The position numbers and the translations under genes were made by a program. The notes beneath the pieces were generated by a model that was not told the DNA's origin, did no database searches, and was given only the letters and a program-made list of their open reading frames with translations. From IMG/VR virus record IMGVR_UViG_3300022305_000519: 38,429 nucleotides of DNA, one strand, 5' to 3'. Below, piece by piece: positions 6,585-38,429 of the stretch; position 1 is the stretch's first letter; the number at the start of each line of letters is the position of its first letter. This stretch comes from a virus.

Positions 6585-7666
6585 TAAACCTGATATTCAG
6601 TGATTCGGATAAACGAATTAATCACGCCACCCAATTGACGAGCCGATGATGCTCCATTAAATGTAGTTGTACCTGCGCTGCTAGAACCAGCACGAATTTT
6701 AAACGTAGTCGCCGAAGTTGTACCAGCTACCATAGTATGTGAAAGAGTCAAACCAGCAGGGAAAGTACCGCCAATACCTGCATATGTTGCAACAGACAAT
6801 GCATTTGCGGTAGTATCTTGAAACAAGGCCATGATAAATGCAGGCCCTGCTGAATGTGAGAAATTACCACATGCATCAATAACAAGAATATTACTTGAAT
6901 TAGTTGGAGTAATTGCCAAAGTCATATACTCGTTACCCTCAGTATTTTGAGGGATAGTATCGTCTGCTGGAATAGTAGTAGTACCAGTTCCTACAGCTCC
7001 AGTAATTGAGTAAACAGTTTGTTTAATTACCTTAGCAGTAGTCCAAGTGGGAGCAGATGTGCCACCACTTGTAAAAAATTGACCGCTGGTTCCAGCAGCA
7101 AGAAAAGCCGTATTATCAGTTGACGTTTGATAGGCAATTTGCCCGCCAGCACCACCGGCAATATTTGTCGCTTTTGTTGCAGTGGTTGCAGTAGTTACAC
7201 TTGTTGCTGATGTTGCAGTATTCGCAGCACCGGGCGCAAGGCTTTTAACCATGTAGCTAACTACATTCCATCCATTAGGCGTACTGTTTGGAATTGCTAC
7301 ACAAGAATCTCCTGCTGCTGTCGTAATATTTGCGCTACCTGGGAGATTCAGAGTAGTAGCATTATGCGTCAGCGTAAGAGCGCCAGTAAATCGAATAAAT
7401 CTAGGCCCGTTATATGTCGTACCAAAACTTGTAATAGTAGTTGTACCGCTAATCTCAACAAACATGGCATTCTGTGCTCCAATGTCTGTCGTAGTCGCAG
7501 AGGCAAGCGTTACTTGGTCTGTAAAGCCTTTACCATCACGAAGGGTAGCGATAAACGCAGCGTATTGGCGTAGGTAGTTATCGGCAGTGATAGGGCTCTC
7601 GGAACCTGCCGGGCTGTTGCTGGATTCTGTTTGCGAAAGATCGCTGATTGCGCTAGGTACGGGCAT
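6584..7666 (-). CDS. Tail fibre or receptor-binding protein (360 aa)
   Basis: N-terminus MPVPSAISDLSQTESSNSPAG..., then long Thr/Ala/Gly/Ser-rich beta-type sequence. Its position follows the ejection-protein-like genes. Confidence 0.65.
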   Translation of the reverse strand: MPVPSAISDLSQTESSNSPAGSESPITADNYLRQYAAFIATLRDGKGFTDQVTLASATTTDIGAQNAMFVEISGTTTITSFGTTYNGPRFIRFTGALTLTHNATTLNLPGSANITTAAGDSCVAIPNSTPNGWNVVSYMVKSLAPGAANTATSATSVTTATTATKATNIAGGAGGQIAYQTSTDNTAFLAAGTSGQFFTSGGTSAPTWTTAKVIKQTVYSITGAVGTGTTTIPADDTIPQNTEGNEYMTLAITPTNSSNILVIDACGNFSHSAGPAFIMALFQDTTANALSVATYAGIGGTFPAGLTLSHTMVAGTTSATTFKIRAGSSSAGTTTFNGASSARQLGGVINSFIRITEYQV

Positions 7667-15997: not shown

Positions 15998-16327
15998 TTA
16001 GATTTTGCCTTTAGTGGTGAAGCAATGCCCGTACTTGTCTCGGTTGCGTGCTAGGAATTTACGCAGTTCCTTGGCTGGCTGAGAGTATGGATTGAATTTA
16101 TCTTCAACCATCATTTTAAGACAATCTGCCTCTGACAAGTGGATACAGTGCCAAAAATTATTCTTGATGCCGTTTTTGCTGTATTCGTCAGACTCTCGCA
16201 AGTCTTTATTCCATTGGTGCGCTGCGCTTGTATTCTGCGTATAGCGAACCTTCATCTTTCCATCTTCAAAGCCAATGTCTGTGACAAGGCCGGTAATGGG
16301 GTCAATATTTCTGTCTACGATTGCCAT
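15998..16327 (-). CDS. Hypothetical protein (109 aa)
   Basis: The ATG at 16327 overlaps the HNH stop (TAATG). The tracked ORF extends to 16342. Confidence 0.6.
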   Translation of the reverse strand: MAIVDRNIDPITGLVTDIGFEDGKMKVRYTQNTSAAHQWNKDLRESDEYSKNGIKNNFWHCIHLSEADCLKMMVEDKFNPYSQPAKELRKFLARNRDKYGHCFTTKGKI

Positions 16328-16899
16328 TATGCGTCCTTCCAAGTTCTGCCGCGACGTATTCTAAGCACAGTCGATATATGTAGGCTATATTTTTCAGCGT
16401 AATACTTTGCTTTGATGTGATTATTATCTCGTATTTCTCTAGCTTGCTCTGCTGTTATTTTTGCCTTTGGGTTATTTTCTCCTACATGAATAGGAGGTTT
16501 GATAAACCTGTTTTTGTCCATCGCATCATGCGTGTTTTCTTTGGCAGTACCAAATCTAAGATGATCTGGGTTCACGCACGAAGGATTGTCGCAAGAATGC
16601 AAGATGTACATTCCATCTGGTATCTCGCCTTTATGAATTTTGTAGCTCAGACGATGGGACATTTCTTTACCATCTTTCTTGCTACCAAGTCCAATAGTCC
16701 CATAACCGTTTAAAGTCTTTGCCCCAGTCCAAATCCAACAATCTGAAGTTTTATCAACGAACTTCCAGAATCTTACTTCTACCGATGTGCGTTTCCTCGC
16801 TACCAAATCAGTAGTGCCATTGCGAAAAAGTCTCCCGTAGTGCTTTCGGCATAAACCTTTTGCAACTACGGGAGACTCGCAACCTTCGATAGAACACAT
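16327..16899 (-). CDS. HNH homing-type endonuclease
   Basis: N-terminal Zn-ribbon CSIEGCESPVVAKGLCRKHYGRL, then WIWTGAKTLNGYGTIG and HSCDNPSCVNPDHLRFGTAKENTHDA (HNH_3-type). AAGGA lies upstream of the ATG at 16899; the tracked ORF starts at 16938. Confidence 0.85.
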   Translation of the reverse strand: MCSIEGCESPVVAKGLCRKHYGRLFRNGTTDLVARKRTSVEVRFWKFVDKTSDCWIWTGAKTLNGYGTIGLGSKKDGKEMSHRLSYKIHKGEIPDGMYILHSCDNPSCVNPDHLRFGTAKENTHDAMDKNRFIKPPIHVGENNPKAKITAEQAREIRDNNHIKAKYYAEKYSLHISTVLRIRRGRTWKDA

Positions 16900-16944
16900 G
16901 GTAATCCTTGGAGTTTTTACACCCCAAGTATACCACAATTCTAT

Positions 16945-27411: not shown

Positions 27412-27573
27412 TTAATTCACATCTTGTGGGTAGTTATATCTAACCCATTGCGCCATTGCCTGCCCAATAACACCGCATCGAACTAAGTTATATAACTCGT
27501 CATCAGAGCATTTCTCTAGCTCTTGTTCTAGCTGTGCCATGAGCATGGCAATGGTGACTAGATCAGCGGTCAT
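27412..27573 (-). CDS. Small hypothetical protein (53 aa)
   Basis: ATGA overlap with the upstream H-NS-like gene. Below the track cutoff. Confidence 0.45.
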   Translation of the reverse strand: MTADLVTIAMLMAQLEQELEKCSDDELYNLVRCGVIGQAMAQWVRYNYPQDVN

Positions 27574-27749
27574 GCAATTCGATATTGTTCCTTATCCTTT
27601 CCCTGCAAGAACTTCGGCAAGCGACCGCGCCCGGCCCATGTTTCACCATTCGGCCCCTTGAACTTTACTGGAAGTGTGCGGCCTTTTAGCTTGCTAGGCG
27701 CTTTCTGTTGCACTTCGGTTACTTGTACGGTTTCTTGAGTCTGTTCCAT
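27570..27749 (-). CDS. Short H-NS-family DNA-binding-domain protein (59 aa; C-terminal domain only)
   Basis: Hand translation: MEQTQETVQVTEVQQKAPSKLKGRTLPVKFKGPNGETWAGRGRLPKFLQGKDKEQYRIA. It carries the core H-NS/MvaT/Bv3F motif (..G.tW.GrGr.Pkw/fl). Below the track cutoff. Confidence 0.65.
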   Translation of the reverse strand: MEQTQETVQVTEVQQKAPSKLKGRTLPVKFKGPNGETWAGRGRLPKFLQGKDKEQYRIA

Positions 27750-27863
27750 GTCAATCCTATTGGTTTATGAACTGTTATTTTAACACTCTTCCCATGTTTT
27801 TTCCACTGTTTAAACGATCAGTGTTTTATTAGGGTTTTTACTAGTAGAAAAAACATTTTGGAT

Positions 27864-27872
27864 TGGCATAAT
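27864..27872 (+). promoter_or_regulatory. Extended -10 promoter candidate (TGgCATAAT) for the plus-strand moron operon
   Basis: tggcataat read at 27864-27872, about 35 nt upstream of the first plus-strand gene. No good -35 element. Confidence 0.35.
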
Positions 27873-27905: not shown

Positions 27906-28097
27906 ATGCGAGTCATCATCAAAGACAAGGACACCGAAGCTGCTTACAAGTTTGCCGACCAATGGGCAAATACTGCTCAGGTTATGGCAGAGCAGCTTGA
28001 GGATGAAGGCACAATTCTTAGTGTTGAGGCATCTAAGAAATGGTATCGGATTATGGATGCTTTCCGCCAAGCCGCCGATGAAGTTGGCAAGGTCTAA
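27906..28097 (+). CDS. Hypothetical protein (63 aa), first gene of the plus-strand accessory operon
   Basis: A strong RBS within the motif CAACTAGGAG lies 7 nt upstream. The antisense ORF 27810-28070 lacks an RBS. Confidence 0.65.
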   Translation: MRVIIKDKDTEAAYKFADQWANTAQVMAEQLEDEGTILSVEASKKWYRIMDAFRQAADEVGKV

Positions 28098-28144
28098 AAA
28101 ATGGAAGGCTTGCTCTTCAATACTTTGATGTACTGGTGAAATAA

Positions 28145-28723
28145 ATGCAAACTACTCTCAATAAAATCCGTTCGCATGGTCCGTGTGCTAGTGGATGGAA
28201 AAAACTTCTCGCGCACCTGGGAAAGACTGAGGCAGACAACGAACCGCTGTCTATCCTCACCATTATTGAAAGCAACGGCCTTGATGACGCCTTGTGGTGC
28301 CTGCGTGCCGTAGACGGAAGCGATAAAGAGATTCGCTTGTTTGCCGTCTGGTGCGCCCGGCAAGTGCAGCACTTGATGACCGACAAGCGAAGTATTGATG
28401 CTCTTGATGTTGCCGAAAAATATGCATCAGGCATGGCTACTCGTGATGAATTGGAACGCGCGGAGTCTGCTGCGGAGTCTGCTGCGTGGTCTGCTGCGTG
28501 GTCTGCTGCGCGGTCTGCTGCGGAGTCTGCTGCGTGGTCTGCTGCGTGGTCTGCTGCGGAGTCTGCTGCGCGGTCTGCTGCGCGGTCTGCTGCGTGGTCT
28601 GCTGCGGAGTCTGCTGCGCGGTCTGCTGCGTGGTCTGCTGCGTGGTCTGCTGCGGAGTCTGCACAAAAAACAGAATTGATCCGTATTTGCAAGGAAATCG
28701 AATGCGCTTCCAACAAATCCTAG
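28145..28723 (+). CDS. Paralog A (192 aa): conserved N-terminal domain of about 105 aa plus 17 x [E/W/R]-S-A-A tandem repeats
   Basis: The N-terminus MQTTLNKIRSHGPCASGWKKLL...LWCLRAVDGSDKEIRLFAVWCARQVQHLM...ATRDELE aligns residue for residue with the product of 31234-31773. Confidence 0.8.
   Translation: MQTTLNKIRSHGPCASGWKKLLAHLGKTEADNEPLSILTIIESNGLDDALWCLRAVDGSDKEIRLFAVWCARQVQHLMTDKRSIDALDVAEKYASGMATRDELERAESAAESAAWSAAWSAARSAAESAAWSAAWSAAESAARSAARSAAWSAAESAARSAAWSAAWSAAESAQKTELIRICKEIECASNKS
28460..28663 (+). repeat. Perfect 12-nt tandem array, (gag|tgg|cgg)-tct-gct-gcg, 17 units
   Basis: Direct reading. Only the first two bases of each unit vary. There are no stops in any of the six frames. 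Confidence 0.95.
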
Positions 28724-28905
28724 ACCTTGCCCGTCACCATGCCGATAATGGTGCTGAAATGCAAACCTCTGCTGATCTGTGCATCCAAGAAGCTCTTGAA
28801 GCATGGCACGAAGGCAAATGGAACACTGCTAAACAGTGGGCTATTAAATCGCTCTCTCACTCTGTGGGAGTTCTTCATTCTGACTATATTGAGGCAAGCA
28901 AATGA
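28702..28905 (+). CDS. Hypothetical protein (67 aa)
   Basis: Internal ATG of tracked ORF 28486-28905, with AAGGA upstream. The N-terminal part of the tracked ORF is a repeat-frame artefact (VCC repeats). Confidence 0.6.
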   Translation: MRFQQILDLARHHADNGAEMQTSADLCIQEALEAWHEGKWNTAKQWAIKSLSHSVGVLHSDYIEASK

Positions 28906-29003
28906 GCTTCATCATCCTATCAGCATCTATCGGCCTGTTCTGCTACATCGCATGGCGTATCGTTGACCGTATCGCTACTGTGATAGTAGACGAACTGTTT
29001 TAA
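28902..29003 (+). CDS. Small single-TM protein (33 aa)
   Basis: ATGA overlap with the upstream stop. TM segment FIILSASIGLFCYIAWRIV. Followed by a terminator. Confidence 0.4.
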   Translation: MSFIILSASIGLFCYIAWRIVDRIATVIVDELF

Positions 29004-29020: not shown

Positions 29021-29048
29021 AAAGGCCCTTCGGGGCCTTTTTGTATTT
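29021..29048 (+). terminator. Intrinsic terminator ending the plus-strand accessory operon
   Basis: aaaggccc-ttcg-gggccttt hairpin followed by ttgtattt. It also faces the convergent TLP gene. Confidence 0.8.
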
Positions 29049-29172
29049 GTGCCGGGTGCTACGACCCATCCCGGCCTGGGCTTTCCTTTGGCTGGAGCAA
29101 TTTACAGCCTTCCATCCGTAGCTTTTGGGTTCTGTTTATTTCGCGTAATAATCTGGCAGGATATTCGCCGGT

Positions 29173-29994
29173 CTATCTTGCGTTAAACCGCTCTGCCACC
29201 AGTGGTTCAGCGCCATCAAAAATGACAGCCTCGCGGTTCGTCACAGTGCCAAGCGGCGGCATGTCAAGCGCGGCGCACACGGACCGTTCGACCACCAGCG
29301 CCGGGTTTGTGCGTGCCTCGTGCTTCGGTGGCAAACGGTCCAGTTCTTCGGTGCTGAACGGCACGCTCACGGTACGCCGCTGCACGTAGGCGCCACGCTT
29401 GAACAGCGGCGGGTAGTCGTTCCAGTTCACACCCTTAGCGTGCAGCATGTCATGCTTCTGTGGGTTGTTCTTGCCCGTCAGTGCCTTATGGCTGTAGTGC
29501 GCCGAAGCTGCCATGCTCACGCTGTTCTTAGTGGCGTCCCACTCGCGCCACAGAAACACATTCGCGCCTTCGGCCCGATTCGGCACATTCCACACGCGGG
29601 CGTCAAATGTCGGCAGGCGATTAGCATATTGCGGCATGCGTTCCAGCACCAAGCGGTAGAAGATCAACGTGGCCTGGGCTGCAAGCTGGCTTGTCATCTT
29701 CGCCACGCGGCCATCAAACCAAATCTGGCTCTGTGTCGTGCTGGCGTGCCAAGCCAGTGTGATTTCGTCGCTCTGCGTGTAGCCCATGCAGGCACCGGTG
29801 TCGCGCACCAGTGCGGCGGTCGTGCCCAGCATGCAGCCAGAAAAACCGGAATCGAATGGGCGCTCCATACCTTTTGTAAAGCTGTGGAATGCGCGGCCAT
29901 CAATCCGCGCCATGGCTGGCAGCAGCGGCATCAAGCGCCGCCCGGCTTCCATGCCCTCGTACAGTTTCATTCGGTCGCCTAAATCATCTTTCAT
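29173..29994 (-). CDS. Thg1-like protein (TLP), tRNA(His) guanylyltransferase-family 3'-5' nucleotidyltransferase
   Basis: Family blocks present: GDRMKLYE, ARIDGRAFHSFTKG..RPFD, GYTQSDEITL, FDGRVAKMTSQLAAQAT, FDARVWNVP, FLWREWDATKNS and KGVNWNDYPPLFKRG. The metal-binding Asp (DGR) and the acidic pair (SDE) are both retained. Confidence 0.9.
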   Translation of the reverse strand: MKDDLGDRMKLYEGMEAGRRLMPLLPAMARIDGRAFHSFTKGMERPFDSGFSGCMLGTTAALVRDTGACMGYTQSDEITLAWHASTTQSQIWFDGRVAKMTSQLAAQATLIFYRLVLERMPQYANRLPTFDARVWNVPNRAEGANVFLWREWDATKNSVSMAASAHYSHKALTGKNNPQKHDMLHAKGVNWNDYPPLFKRGAYVQRRTVSVPFSTEELDRLPPKHEARTNPALVVERSVCAALDMPPLGTVTNREAVIFDGAEPLVAERFNAR

Positions 29995-30215
29995 ACATTC
30001 CCTCGGAATCGGTTTAACAGGTCGCCCAAGTCCGACCGCCTACGGCGTCGGCTTGTCTCCAGCGTTAGAACTCATGACCGCGCCATTTCCAAGAGCGCAT
30101 TGCTTCCGATCAATGCCGCGTACTTATCGTTCAAATTGGTTGATGGTGTGCCAGTGCTGTTATCTCTGGCTTGCTTTAAGCGGCAACTTTGTTAGGCAAT
30201 AATTTGGCTAACTAC

Positions 30216-30221
30216 ATTATC
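30216..30221 (-). promoter_or_regulatory. -10-like element GATAAT inside the repeated motif ATAATGTAGTT (proximal copy, about 220 nt upstream of the TLP ATG)
   Basis: Plus strand attatc at 30216-30221. It shares the 11-mer aactacattat with the copy at 30489-30499. No convincing -35 element. Confidence 0.3.
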
Positions 30222-30324
30222 CGCAGGTCAGCATCCTGCATTACACCATCAAGATAGCGCACATAGCCGTTCTTCCAGTTACATTAACCGCCCGCTAGTG
30301 CGGTCACTATATGCGCTAACTTCA

Positions 30325-30493
30325 TGGCGTTTAGGATTGGCGGACAGTCGCTACTATGGCTAAACCTTATTCGGCATTCGGTTTACAGCTACACCGGAAG
30401 GGACGAACCCAGCGCCGGGCCTTATTAGCTGTGCGTGTCTCCGTTGCAACCGCTTGGGCAGTTACTCTCCACGCCGCGCCAATCCTAAACTAC
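30325..30493 (-). ncRNA. Candidate structured RNA (about 165 nt) closed by a perfect 14-bp terminal helix
   Basis: gtttaggattggcg (30329-30342) is the exact reverse complement of cgccaatcctaaac (30477-30490). Internal hairpins include ACAGCTA/TAGCTGT and TAAACC/GGTTTA. The region has no ORF. A TATAAT lies immediately 5' on the minus strand. Confidence 0.35.
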
Positions 30494-30499
30494 ATTATA
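30494..30499 (-). promoter_or_regulatory. Perfect -10 hexamer TATAAT (distal copy of the ATAATGTAGTT motif)
   Basis: Plus strand attata at 30494-30499. The helix arm starts 4 nt downstream on the minus strand. The -35 is weak (TTCTTA at 17-nt spacing). Confidence 0.35.
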
Positions 30500-30715
30500 T
30501 GCTTTGTGGTGACAATTAAGAAAGATCATTACCCCCGTGCCAAGAAGTAATTCGCAGATTGGCACATCCACTGCAAATACTTATGCATCTGTCTCAATAG
30601 TCACCACAAAACACACTCTCCTAAAAAGAACCCCATCAACGTACACACATATCCGGGGCCTAAACACTGTCCACATCATTGCCAACTAGGAGAAGAGTTG
30701 GCCAGTGGATAGCGG

Positions 30716-31036
30716 CTAACTTGTTGCTCGATCTTGCCTGCGGTTGCTTGCTTCCTGGCTTCTCCACACTTCGATTCGTAGCTCTGCCGCTGTCATCTGC
30801 CACTTCATCGTTTCCTCTGCCTCTACAGCAGCCCTAAGCCCCTCTAGTAGCTCTCGGTACTCTGGATGCGCGTAGGCATACGCTTCTTTGGCTGCAATCG
30901 TTCCTTCTGTCTCGTTCATCAGCAGGCTTTTCTTGCTTCTCAGGAAGTTCTCGATGTACACGCGGTTAGCCTTGGCCTGTGCAAACTTTGGCGCGTTTTC
31001 TATTAGGAAGTTGACTGCTTTGTTAGGGTCAGTCAT
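30716..31036 (-). CDS. Hypothetical helical protein (106 aa)
   Basis: Clean ORF, coupled to the upstream 70-aa gene (8-nt overlap). Confidence 0.7.
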   Translation of the reverse strand: MTDPNKAVNFLIENAPKFAQAKANRVYIENFLRSKKSLLMNETEGTIAAKEAYAYAHPEYRELLEGLRAAVEAEETMKWQMTAAELRIEVWRSQEASNRRQDRATS

Positions 31037-31241
31037 TTTTCATTGCTGCGTCAAATTCAATCGCAGATTTTGCAATTTGCGTCATTTGGATATCAGATAA
31101 GCGATTACTAAAAATCTTAGTAGACCCACCCTTATAAATTGCCATCAACGCGCCAAGTGCAGAATTTCTTTGCTGTTGCAGTTCCTCCACCATGCGCTTT
31201 AGGCTGTCCAGGGCTTCGGCTTCGACTTCGATCTTAGGCAT
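31029..31241 (-). CDS. Hypothetical protein (70 aa, MPKIEVEAEALDSLKRMVEEL...)
   Basis: Internal ATG of tracked ORF 31029-31490, with AGGAGG 6 nt upstream. The PT-rich N-terminus of the tracked ORF is a repeat-frame artefact. Confidence 0.65.
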   Translation of the reverse strand: MPKIEVEAEALDSLKRMVEELQQQRNSALGALMAIYKGGSTKIFSNRLSDIQMTQIAKSAIEFDAAMKND

Positions 31242-31773
31242 TGTCAGCCTCCTGGCAGATTTCACGCAGGCGCTTTTCTTGGGAGTAGTAGGCGGCGTAG
31301 GCGTCGGCGGCGTAGGCGTCGGCGTAGGCGTAGGCGTAGGCGTAGGAGGAGGCGTAGGCGGCGGCGTCGGCGGCGTAGGCGTCGGCGTCGGCGTAGGCGG
31401 CGTCGGCGGCGTAGGCGGCGGCTGAGTCGGCGTAGGCGGCGTAGGCGGCGGATCGTGCCGACTCCAATTCATCCCGCGTTGCCATTCCATTCGCGTATCG
31501 CTCCGCTACATCCAGCGCACGAATACTACGTTCGTCTTTCATCAGGTGCTGTACTTGTCGGGCGCACCACACAGCATAAAGCCGGATTTCCTTGTCGTGT
31601 CCGTCCACAGCACGCAGGCACCAAATAGCATCGCGCAAGCCGTTGCTGTCAATGATGGTAGCGATGCTGATTTCTTCGTCATCTGCCTCAGTCTTTCCAA
31701 GGTTACGCAGTAACTTTGCCCATCCAGAATTGCATGGGCCTTTGGCTCGGATTTTGTTGAGGGTGGTTTTCAT
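31234..31773 (-). CDS. Paralog B (179 aa): same N-terminal domain as 28145-28723 plus an Ala/Tyr/Asp dipeptide-repeat C-terminus
   Basis: MKTTLNKIRAKGPCNSGWAKLL...IWCLRAVDGHDKEIRLYAVWCARQVQHLM...ATRDELE. The RBS lies within CAACTAGGAG. Confidence 0.8.
   Translation of the reverse strand: MKTTLNKIRAKGPCNSGWAKLLRNLGKTEADDEEISIATIIDSNGLRDAIWCLRAVDGHDKEIRLYAVWCARQVQHLMKDERSIRALDVAERYANGMATRDELESARSAAYAAYADSAAAYAADAAYADADAYAADAAAYASSYAYAYAYADAYAADAYAAYYSQEKRLREICQEADNA
31285..31450 (-). repeat. 6-nt-period tandem array (plus-strand gcgtag/gcgtcg/gcggcg units; minus strand GCC-TAC / GCC-GAC / GCC-GCC)
   Basis: Direct reading. The region is open in several frames, which produces the PT-rich and GV-rich shadow ORFs. 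Confidence 0.9.
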
Positions 31774-38216: not shown

Positions 38217-38429
38217 ATGAAACAGAAAATCTTCCATCGTTCCAATAGCGCAGTTATCTTTGAATGTGAAGTGCCTGACGAGAATAGCGGAATGGCAATG
38301 CGCTATGCGCTTGAGAAAGCTACGCAAAGCGGTGCCGACCTGATCGGTGCCGACCTGATCGGTGCCGACCTGATCGGTGCCTACCTGAGCGGTGCCAACC
38401 TGATCGGTGCTTACCTGAGCGGTGCCTAC
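38217..38429 (+). CDS. Pentapeptide-repeat protein, N-terminal part (3'-partial in this window; continues at nt 2/53-559)
   Basis: ATG at 38217 with an AGGAG RBS. Translation [71 protein letters not shown]. The frame runs off the end of the window. Confidence 0.85.
38334..38429 (+). repeat. 15-nt tandem repeat array (start of the pentapeptide array)
   Basis: ggtgccgacctgatc x3, then variant units. The last 52 nt are identical to nt 1-52. Confidence 0.95.

Follow-up and report, generated by a model that had tools for sequence, protein, structure and literature searches.

Why would a phage of about 38 kb, in which no tRNA gene was found, carry a gene for a Thg1-like protein (TLP), a member of the 3'-5' nucleotidyltransferase family? 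The question is raised by IMG/VR virus record IMGVR_UViG_3300022305_000519, a stretch of 38,429 nt that we analysed as a whole and refer to as the window; the TLP gene lies at 29173-29994 on its minus strand. What bacterial-type TLPs do physiologically has been an open question since 2010, and phage TLPs have so far come only from genomes of at least 98 kb, most of them above 150 kb (complete genomes among the 120 listed of 164 homologue-bearing phages). In metagenomic relatives from large phages tRNA genes often surround the TLP gene, other RNA-repair genes are reported for jumbo phages, and the contribution of the TLP itself is hard to isolate there. What is new here is a TLP alone, in a genome of about 38 kb with neither a tRNA gene nor another repair enzyme found. 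With a confidence slightly better than even, we lean towards reading its product as an active, stand-alone bacterial-type TLP that would repair the 5' ends of host tRNAs.

Minus strand, 29173-29994: TLP gene, encoding a Thg1-like protein of 273 aa, used below for family, fold and residue mapping.
Minus strand, 29999-30004: Shine-Dalgarno-like GAGGGA, read from the sequence, with its GAGG core 6 nt 5' of the ATG.

A reading made earlier from the letters of the window (hereafter the sequence-only reading) had called the gene a Thg1-like polymerase from two conserved blocks, ARIDGRAFHSF and YTQSDEITL. Both lie within the 273-aa product, whose start codon is backed by homologues with alignments that begin at residue 1, and Pfam, PHROG and PDB matches bear the assignment out. 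The Pfam profile Thg1 (PF04446) matched with 90 bits (E = 1.6e-25; gathering cut-off 29.2) over residues 7-138, corresponding to profile positions 2-130 of 130; the match to Thg1C was weak, at 18.8 bits under its cut-off of 26.3. PHROG 4717, 'tRNA-His guanylyltransferase', matched at E = 4.4e-81 (273 bits). Among solved structures the top sequence match was the Bacillus thuringiensis TLP (BtTLP; PDB 4kgk, E = 1.8e-37, residues 3-204), with an archaeal TLP second and fungal and human Thg1 behind it; the BtTLP E-value is 27 orders of magnitude ahead of the next distinct PDB sequence and 28 ahead of any eukaryotic Thg1. Structure prediction, which like the profile search had been suggested as a check, recovered the same family: an AlphaFold2 model built on an alignment with 41 homologues had a mean predicted local distance difference test score (pLDDT) of 86.5 and a predicted template-modelling score (pTM) of 0.84, and its 32 best Foldseek matches in the PDB were all Thg1/TLP chains, led by 4kgm (E = 2.8e-20, target-normalised template-modelling score 0.83), with the next match at E = 0.026. 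Judged from these profile matches and from the model, the product belongs to the Thg1/TLP superfamily and has its predicted polymerase-like palm fold. Members of this superfamily add nucleotides in the 3'-5' direction and form homotetramers.

We then asked whether the active site is preserved, using an alignment of 139 sequences (the window protein, translated hits from 136 loci, and fragments of BtTLP and yeast Thg1). The key residues of the window protein are E13, R30, D32, S75, D76, E77, K99, D131, R133, R150, D153, N157 and K199, and every invariant or near-invariant position of the alignment is kept in it, G33, S75-D76-E77, D131-x-R133 and K199-R200-G201 included. The carboxylates D32, D76 and E77 are found in 137-139 of the 139 aligned homologues, and R30, K99, R133, E13 and D131-x-R133 each in 136-139 of them. 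In BtTLP the metal-binding carboxylates are D30, D75 and E76, equivalent to human D29, D76 and E77; they are essential, D75A being inactive, and yeast Thg1 uses R27, K96 and R133 for nucleotidyl transfer and K44, S75 and N161 for activation (PMC3701042). D32, D76 and E77 of the window protein map onto the BtTLP carboxylates, R30, K99 and R133 onto the yeast transfer residues, and S75 and N157 onto yeast S75 and N161. The remaining activation residue, a lysine in both characterised enzymes (yeast K44, BtTLP K43), is Arg45 in the window protein (window position about 29860-29862), a change that may affect 5'-adenylylation; Arg45 is also present in 116 of the 139 aligned sequences, among them homologues from phages including 201phi2-1, proteobacteria, myxobacteria and planctomycetes. 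The exchange is a conservative one on the alignment, and may bear on a preference for 5'-monophosphate- versus 5'-triphosphate-ended substrates. The sequence-only reading had described the enzyme as apparently intact in its catalysis, and with the database matches and the kept family-invariant residues it does appear so, Arg45 being the sole caveat.

The same alignment speaks to the subtype. The HINNLYN-carrying insertion of eukaryotic Thg1 is missing, as it is in BtTLP: the segment reads WREWDATKNS with a 10-residue gap, where yeast Thg1 has WRYVDTHINNLYNTTFWQL. Because this insertion is missing and because the closest characterised proteins are TLPs, we class the protein as a TLP of the bacterial/archaeal type and not as a Thg1.

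The gene does not look native to the genome that carries it, a point for which its upstream neighbour is informative.

Minus strand, 30716-31036: g106, the conserved upstream neighbour and one edge of a cargo slot that reaches the terminase genes.

By eye, the gene had been described as a GC-rich insert of roughly 60% against the high 40s. Computed values agree: the open reading frame (ORF) has a GC content of 0.600, and 0.723 at third codon positions (GC3), against 0.488 for the genome, and is the GC-richest gene of the window. Across the genome, the GC maximum for segments of 822 nt falls at 29231, and only 0.35% of such segments reach 0.600. Among 133 TLP loci it shows the greatest GC excess, +0.114 relative to the remainder of the genome (z = 3.1); in the 132 others gene GC tracks flank GC (r = 0.97), with a mean difference of 0.007 and a standard deviation of 0.034. 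When the whole window was compared by blastn with the first 85 loci fetched for comparison (L001-L085), matches were confined to 29169-29995, and in the closest relatives the match spans the full ORF at 79-84% nucleotide identity. None of 80 IMG/VR loci with a g106 gene carries a TLP gene. Because of this deviant composition, the homology that ends at the ORF borders and the absence from g106 loci, we conclude that the gene is a horizontally acquired, moron-like cargo gene in a variable slot. An empty-site relative giving the exact insertion borders was not obtained among g106-bearing loci, since the nearest of these are so diverged that DNA aligns only over g106.

The suggestion that the cargo was acquired recently holds in part. 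It is foreign and its GC is unameliorated; its synonymous divergence (dS) from the closest relatives of known context is 0.67-0.97, none of these is the direct donor, and 'recent' can be meant only relatively. The ratio of non-synonymous to synonymous divergence (dN/dS) in the same comparisons is 0.08-0.09, which indicates strong purifying selection on the gene. Unameliorated GC and absence from all 80 g106-sharing loci are also what one would expect of a passenger, a gene that recombined into the cargo slot, has no role in the phage and has not yet been lost. We consider this very unlikely: the ORF is unbroken and has a good Shine-Dalgarno sequence, and all catalytic residues are kept; the low dN/dS extends across the clade; and the gene recurs in many compact phage genomes and is unchanged in five assemblies of this phage.

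The description of the carrier as a small phage also stands. The two ends of the window share a 52-nt overlap, inside a pentapeptide-repeat gene with a 15-nt period, and five contigs of about 38.4-38.6 kb from Joint Genome Institute (JGI) sample 3300022468 encode an identical TLP (the two that were compared are identical to the window over the stretches compared), so that the genome, at about 38 kb, is complete or nearly so. It combines an SU10-type portal and adaptor, major head protein, scaffold and large terminase with a lambdoid-style set of Erf, SSB, a DUF1376 replication protein and NinG. No tRNA gene, hence no tRNA-His gene, and no Rfam family was found in the genome, and the ORFs scanned (here and below, most of those of at least 100 aa in 1-19 kb, and every JGI-called gene in 19-38 kb) held no recognisable multi-enzyme RNA-repair module of the T4 or jumbo-phage type. 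Because the phage has no tRNA gene, the substrates of its TLP would have to be host RNAs.

What might such an enzyme do with them? BtTLP and an archaeal TLP (MaTLP) carry out templated addition to 5'-truncated tRNAs of any identity. They favour this repair 5- to 160-fold over N-1 addition to tRNA-His, and the role proposed for them is repair or quality control of tRNA 5' ends (PMC3061083). By analogy with these enzymes, the window TLP would bind a tRNA or tRNA-like helix end that lacks one or a few nucleotides in its 5' strand, would activate a 5'-monophosphate with ATP or GTP or take a 5'-triphosphate directly, and would add Watson-Crick-templated nucleotides 3'-5' with the intact 3' strand as template. 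The acceptor stem would thereby be restored, including G-1 opposite C73 in bacterial tRNA-His. The gene was acquired horizontally, into the variable slot that separates the nin-type region from the packaging genes, and on this proposal the benefit to the phage would be that translation is kept running when tRNA 5' ends are damaged in infection, possibly by an undescribed host nuclease.

We wondered where else such genes occur and what company they keep. The family is large, with 5,583 clusters at 50% identity (E up to 1e-3) and more than 7,400 at 90% identity (E up to 1e-20), and the 120 best relatives are 74-94% identical to the query, which makes the clade abundant in metagenomes. Relatives of known context at 75-91% amino-acid identity sit in several unrelated phage and prophage settings. 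In P22-like/lambdoid contigs of 33-38 kb (L001, L142) the TLP gene directly follows NinB and precedes HNH/terminase genes; in a Piscinibacter sakaiensis prophage (L127) it follows RusA; and contigs of about 35 kb that encode a giant LPD39 protein (L003-L006) carry it too. One copy, 80% identical, lies 0.4 kb upstream of a gene for chimallin, the PhiKZ nuclear-shell protein (L141, 1696-4854); since this TLP gene adjoins chimallin, the clade is common to small lambdoid-type and nucleus-forming jumbo phages. At a prophage end (L143, 2276-5206) a weak radical-SAM match, a PyocinActivator-family gene and a metallo-beta-lactamase-fold protein come after the TLP gene; the last of these weakly matches the anti-Pycsar Apyc1 family, and the surroundings may be an anti-defence gene neighbourhood. 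PADLOC defence models gave no match to the window TLP, and we rejected the idea that it is a component of a known defence system.

Among species-representative genomes, copies at 75% identity or above come from Burkholderiales, Thermomonas and Nitrosomonadales, with further ones on contigs of metagenome-assembled genomes (MAGs) whose taxon label is doubtful; copies at 50-60% identity lie on contigs and chromosomes of Myxococcota and Planctomycetota. For TLPs of phages the family PHROG 4717 already exists, and the survey of deposited phages that had been proposed found a homologue in 164 of 50,697 records, all below 60% identity and many annotated as tRNA-His guanylyltransferase; no deposited phage matches the TLP gene at the DNA level. 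In the close relatives no conserved partner gene was found beside the TLP gene, save an integrase in four loci.

Those four loci (L138, L063, L088 and L086) have a tyrosine-integrase homologue 0.15-2 kb downstream of the TLP gene, in L086 with a tRNA-Thr gene about 0.9 kb further on. Together with the prophage contexts of L143 and L127 in bacterial genomes, and with the clade members at 75% identity or above in assemblies of Burkholderiales, Thermomonas and Nitrosomonadales, they would fit a lysogenic-conversion gene, expressed from a prophage and benefiting the host by repairing lysogen tRNAs, for example after attack by competitors' RNase toxins or other phages, instead of serving the lytic growth of the phage. 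We regard this as unlikely for the window, if still to be taken seriously. No integrase was detected in the ORFs scanned; the TLP gene is positioned between the replication, nin and packaging genes and co-directional with them, and not at a prophage end; and the chimallin-encoding jumbo phage that carries an 80%-identical copy is presumably virulent.

Neighbouring tRNA genes, which tie the wider family to tRNA and so speak for 5'-end repair, also raise another explanation. They are found near TLP in 19 of 60 scanned loci. The more distant relatives, mostly of large phages, often lie inside tRNA arrays or next to them, with up to 26 tRNAs within 6 kb, at roughly 50-63% identity to the window TLP (L013, L023, L026, L028, L031, L033, L042/L044, L045 and L051; L102 is chromosomal); the close small-phage clade has no tRNA-gene neighbours. 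In L042/L044 a tRNA-His gene lies about 0.3-0.4 kb upstream of the TLP gene, in L022 one also adjoins it, and on a Gemmataceae chromosome (L102) one lies within 0.1 kb downstream. Such adjacency, the database annotation as 'tRNA-His guanylyltransferase' throughout and the ability of bacterial and archaeal TLPs to add a templated N-1 to tRNA-His (PMC3061083) would suit an enzyme that keeps tRNA-His identity, re-adding a G-1 that was lost or left unmade opposite C73 in infection so that histidine charging continues. We find this improbable. The tRNA-His genes that we inspected beside TLP, three in all, each encode C73 and, like those of most bacteria (PMC3061083), G-1 as well, and we rejected a phage tRNA-His that lacks G-1 as the reason for the TLP; BtTLP prefers repair of truncated tRNA to -1 addition by the factors given above; and this phage has no tRNA-His gene.

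Host tRNA 5'-end repair thus remains the reading that we favour, and several findings weigh against it. Besides the lysine-to-arginine change at Arg45, no polynucleotide kinase (PNK), RNA ligase or CCA-adding enzyme was found by Pfam and PHROG in the ORFs scanned, so lesions that leave a 5'-OH would be beyond the phage alone, and the most persistent linkage of bacterial Thg1 genes is precisely with a polynucleotide kinase (PMC2904730). The portal protein is only 32-36% identical to that of any deposited phage, too distant for host assignment. The literature that we searched held no experimental work, biochemical or genetic, on any phage TLP, and no defence that shortens tRNA 5' ends. Eco2 nicks 6-7 nt from the tRNA 3' end, a bacterial Schlafen cuts the T-loop, and Cas12a3 is reported to cleave the 'tRNA tail'; the Eco2 authors contrast these lesions with those of the anticodon-targeting Cas13 and PARIS. 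None of these lesions is repairable by a TLP. Because the defence-made acceptor-end lesions that we found lie on the 3' strand or tail, the cognate defence is hypothetical, and we treat with considerable doubt the more specific idea that the mobile stand-alone TLP clade is a counter-defence against an undescribed nuclease that trims the 5' strand of the tRNA acceptor or removes G-1 from tRNA-His.

Nor would a counter-defence of this kind be new as an idea, as the sequence-only reading had supposed. Anantharaman, Iyer and Aravind proposed RNA repair against host defences for the Thg1 homologue of phage 201phi2-1 in 2010 (PMC2904730), and a 2021 survey of jumbo phages repeated it, describing Thg1 as a sporadic RNA-repair component beside RNA ligases, kinases and CCA-adding enzymes (PMC7824862). 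The gene family, its phage members and the hypothesis of a repair role have all been described before.

A different substrate had been proposed next to the gene itself, namely an RNA encoded in the long gap upstream.

Minus strand, 29995-30715: ORF-free stretch of 720 nt from g106 to the TLP gene, unusual for a tightly packed phage.
Minus strand, 30325-30493: candidate structured RNA of the sequence-only reading.
30497-30502: TATAAT, with a poor -35.
30500-30526 and 30587-30613: inverted repeat of 27 nt.

The stretch presumably serves the TLP gene as 5' leader or as regulatory region; when the minus strand of 29995-30715 was scanned with the consensus, no sigma-70-type promoter came up. Folding the minus strand of 30320-30500 gave a multi-branch structure closed by a 14-bp helix that joins its 5' and 3' ends (z = -2.4), the plus strand being unremarkable (z = -1.2), and the TATAAT and inverted repeat lie just upstream of this helix. 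These features, the position of the ORF-free region directly upstream of the TLP gene and the broader recognition of substrate RNA by TLPs than by Thg1 (PMC6471195) are what can be said for a TLP that acts on a phage or other non-tRNA RNA, for example by 5' extension or 5'-adenylylation of a transcript of 30325-30493. We think it exceedingly unlikely. The 720-nt region has no similarity in 300 fetched loci (blastn, tblastx and nhmmer) and no homologue in INPHARED in distant mode; the stem pattern of the candidate RNA recovered nothing homologous in IMG/VR, and in metagenomes it gave at least 120 chance palindromic matches, none homologous among the matches listed; and Rfam returned nothing for the candidate region at the gathering threshold or at E up to 10. 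With a single sequence, covariation could not be used as a test. In close relatives the gap from the upstream gene to TLP is 12-18 nt (L001 and L142), an overlapping stop and start (L141) or 135 nt (L003), which leaves no room for such an RNA. No other TLP locus has the region, so on these sequence comparisons it is not a conserved partner of TLP, and we rejected the link to the candidate RNA.

On its other side, the gene faces a separate transcription unit.

Plus strand, 27906-29002: convergent unit of four small genes (about 63, 192, 69 and 33 aa, the last approximate).
Plus strand, 27906-28097, 28145-28723, 28696-28905 and roughly 28903-29002: the genes of this unit, matching independent JGI gene calls.
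27845-27872: promoter-like site of the unit.
29021-29040: GC-rich hairpin AAAGGCCCTTCGGGGCCTTT between the convergent TLP gene and the plus-strand unit, 130 nt past the TLP stop.

The small-gene operon that had been described as convergent to TLP is thus present, as four plus-strand genes that terminate at the hairpin, and is neighbouring cargo, separate from the TLP gene. The terminator had also been called bidirectional. On the plus strand the hairpin is followed by a T-run; on the minus strand, where the tail is TTTATTGC, the case is weaker, and the terminator scan scored the plus strand only, so that termination in both directions is plausible but less secure. At the other edge of the slot, the distance from g106 to the small-terminase-like g96/TerL is about 0.7-4.4 kb in the eight loci where it was seen, shortest in L175/L176 at 0.7 kb, and is 4.5 kb in the window.

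Two paralogues of phrog_18326 flank the TLP segment in inverted orientation, one of them the 192-aa gene of the convergent unit (28145-28723, plus strand) and the other at 31234-31773 on the minus strand. Their N-terminal 103 aa are 80% identical, and their C-terminal halves consist of different hypervariable tandem repeats, with a 12/48-nt period at 28460-28662 and 6/12/18-nt periods at 31291-31441. We considered the pair as an invertible or mobile cassette around TLP and rejected this, the DNA arms being only 71-74% identical and the arrangement occurring in no other locus. A TLP gene of a Fimbriiglobus MAG (L095, 8859-12600) has four tandem paralogues from a Planctomycete multi-copy family on its immediate downstream side, and three of the four match phrog_18326 of the window by blastp through the short motif RLF..C.R....L.DERS..A..VAE; given the shortness of the motif and the multi-copy family, this co-occurrence in Planctomycete contigs is probably coincidence.

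Further features of the window are noted for completeness. At 27570-27749 on the minus strand, a gene encodes a 59-aa protein with little beyond an H-NS C-terminal DNA-binding domain (Pfam E = 8.5e-7); L003-L006 also have an H-NS-domain gene, which lies upstream of TLP at a distance of about 3.5 kb, and in the related locus L144 (6416-7268) a 206-aa ORF (6632-7252) seemingly interrupts the homologue; it may be a homing-endonuclease insertion, though it is not annotated as one. An HNH endonuclease gene (PHROG 3593, E = 9e-38) lies among the head genes at 16327-16938 on the minus strand, directly downstream of the major head protein gene. Both ends of the window, 1-219 and 38328-38426, fall within the gene with the 15-nt-period repeat. 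No deposited phage resembles the genome at the DNA level, bar this one pentapeptide-repeat gene: over its first 231 nt the window shares 83% identity with a 'pentapeptide' gene of Rheinheimera phages (Barba series), the only such match to deposited phages.

The clade of the window TLP is highly mobile and has no member among deposited phage genomes, and because near-identical copies have crossed unrelated backbones under strong purifying selection, the enzyme would seem to be useful alone, on universal host substrates. In a phage this compact, deletion and complementation of the gene would be a simple way to learn what damages tRNA 5' ends in infection. If the counter-defence idea were true, it would give bacterial-type TLPs their first physiological role and point to a new class of tRNA-targeting defence.

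Among known systems, BtTLP (4KGK/4KGM) is the nearest in structure, sharing the fold, the metal-binding carboxylates, the nucleotidyl-transfer arginines and lysine and the loop without HINNLYN. It differs in sequence (29-38% Foldseek identity), in having Lys43 where the phage protein has Arg45, and in being chromosomal and not phage-borne; the phage TLP also has about 60 extra C-terminal residues (212-273), conserved in its clade, that fall outside the alignment to the 245-aa BtTLP. Eukaryotic Thg1 shares the superfamily, the palm fold and the two-metal active site, and differs by its HINNLYN insertion; by analogy with other TLPs, the phage enzyme is expected to be template-dependent and not specific for tRNA-His. 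The TLPs of large and jumbo phages, for example 201phi2-1 (Pseudomonas), CcrColossus (Caulobacter), BcepSauron (Burkholderia) and Bcp1-like phages (Bacillus), belong to the same protein family; they are 37-54% identical over up to 99% of the length, the C-terminal part included, and the same RNA-repair role has been proposed for them (PMC2904730, PMC7824862). No deposited phage has a copy more than 60% identical to the window TLP, and the metagenomic large-phage relatives that were scanned often have the TLP gene inside tRNA arrays, with other RNA-repair genes listed for jumbo phages in the 2021 survey; neither a tRNA gene nor another RNA-repair gene was found in the genome of about 38 kb described here.

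The logic of the proposed repair would resemble that of T4 Pnk and Rnl1, which mend PrrC-cleaved tRNA-Lys: in both cases a phage enzyme would restore host tRNA that was damaged to stop translation. The T4 lesion is a break in the anticodon loop, mended by end healing and ligation with unrelated enzymes, and the T4 host nuclease is known. The proposed chemistry is also that of Dictyostelium TLP3, which fills in truncated acceptor stems of any tRNA by templated 3'-5' addition and, through mitochondrial tRNA 5'-editing, is the only TLP with a proven physiological repair role (PMC6471195); that system is eukaryotic and organellar, and the truncation it mends is made by a programmed editing step rather than by damage.

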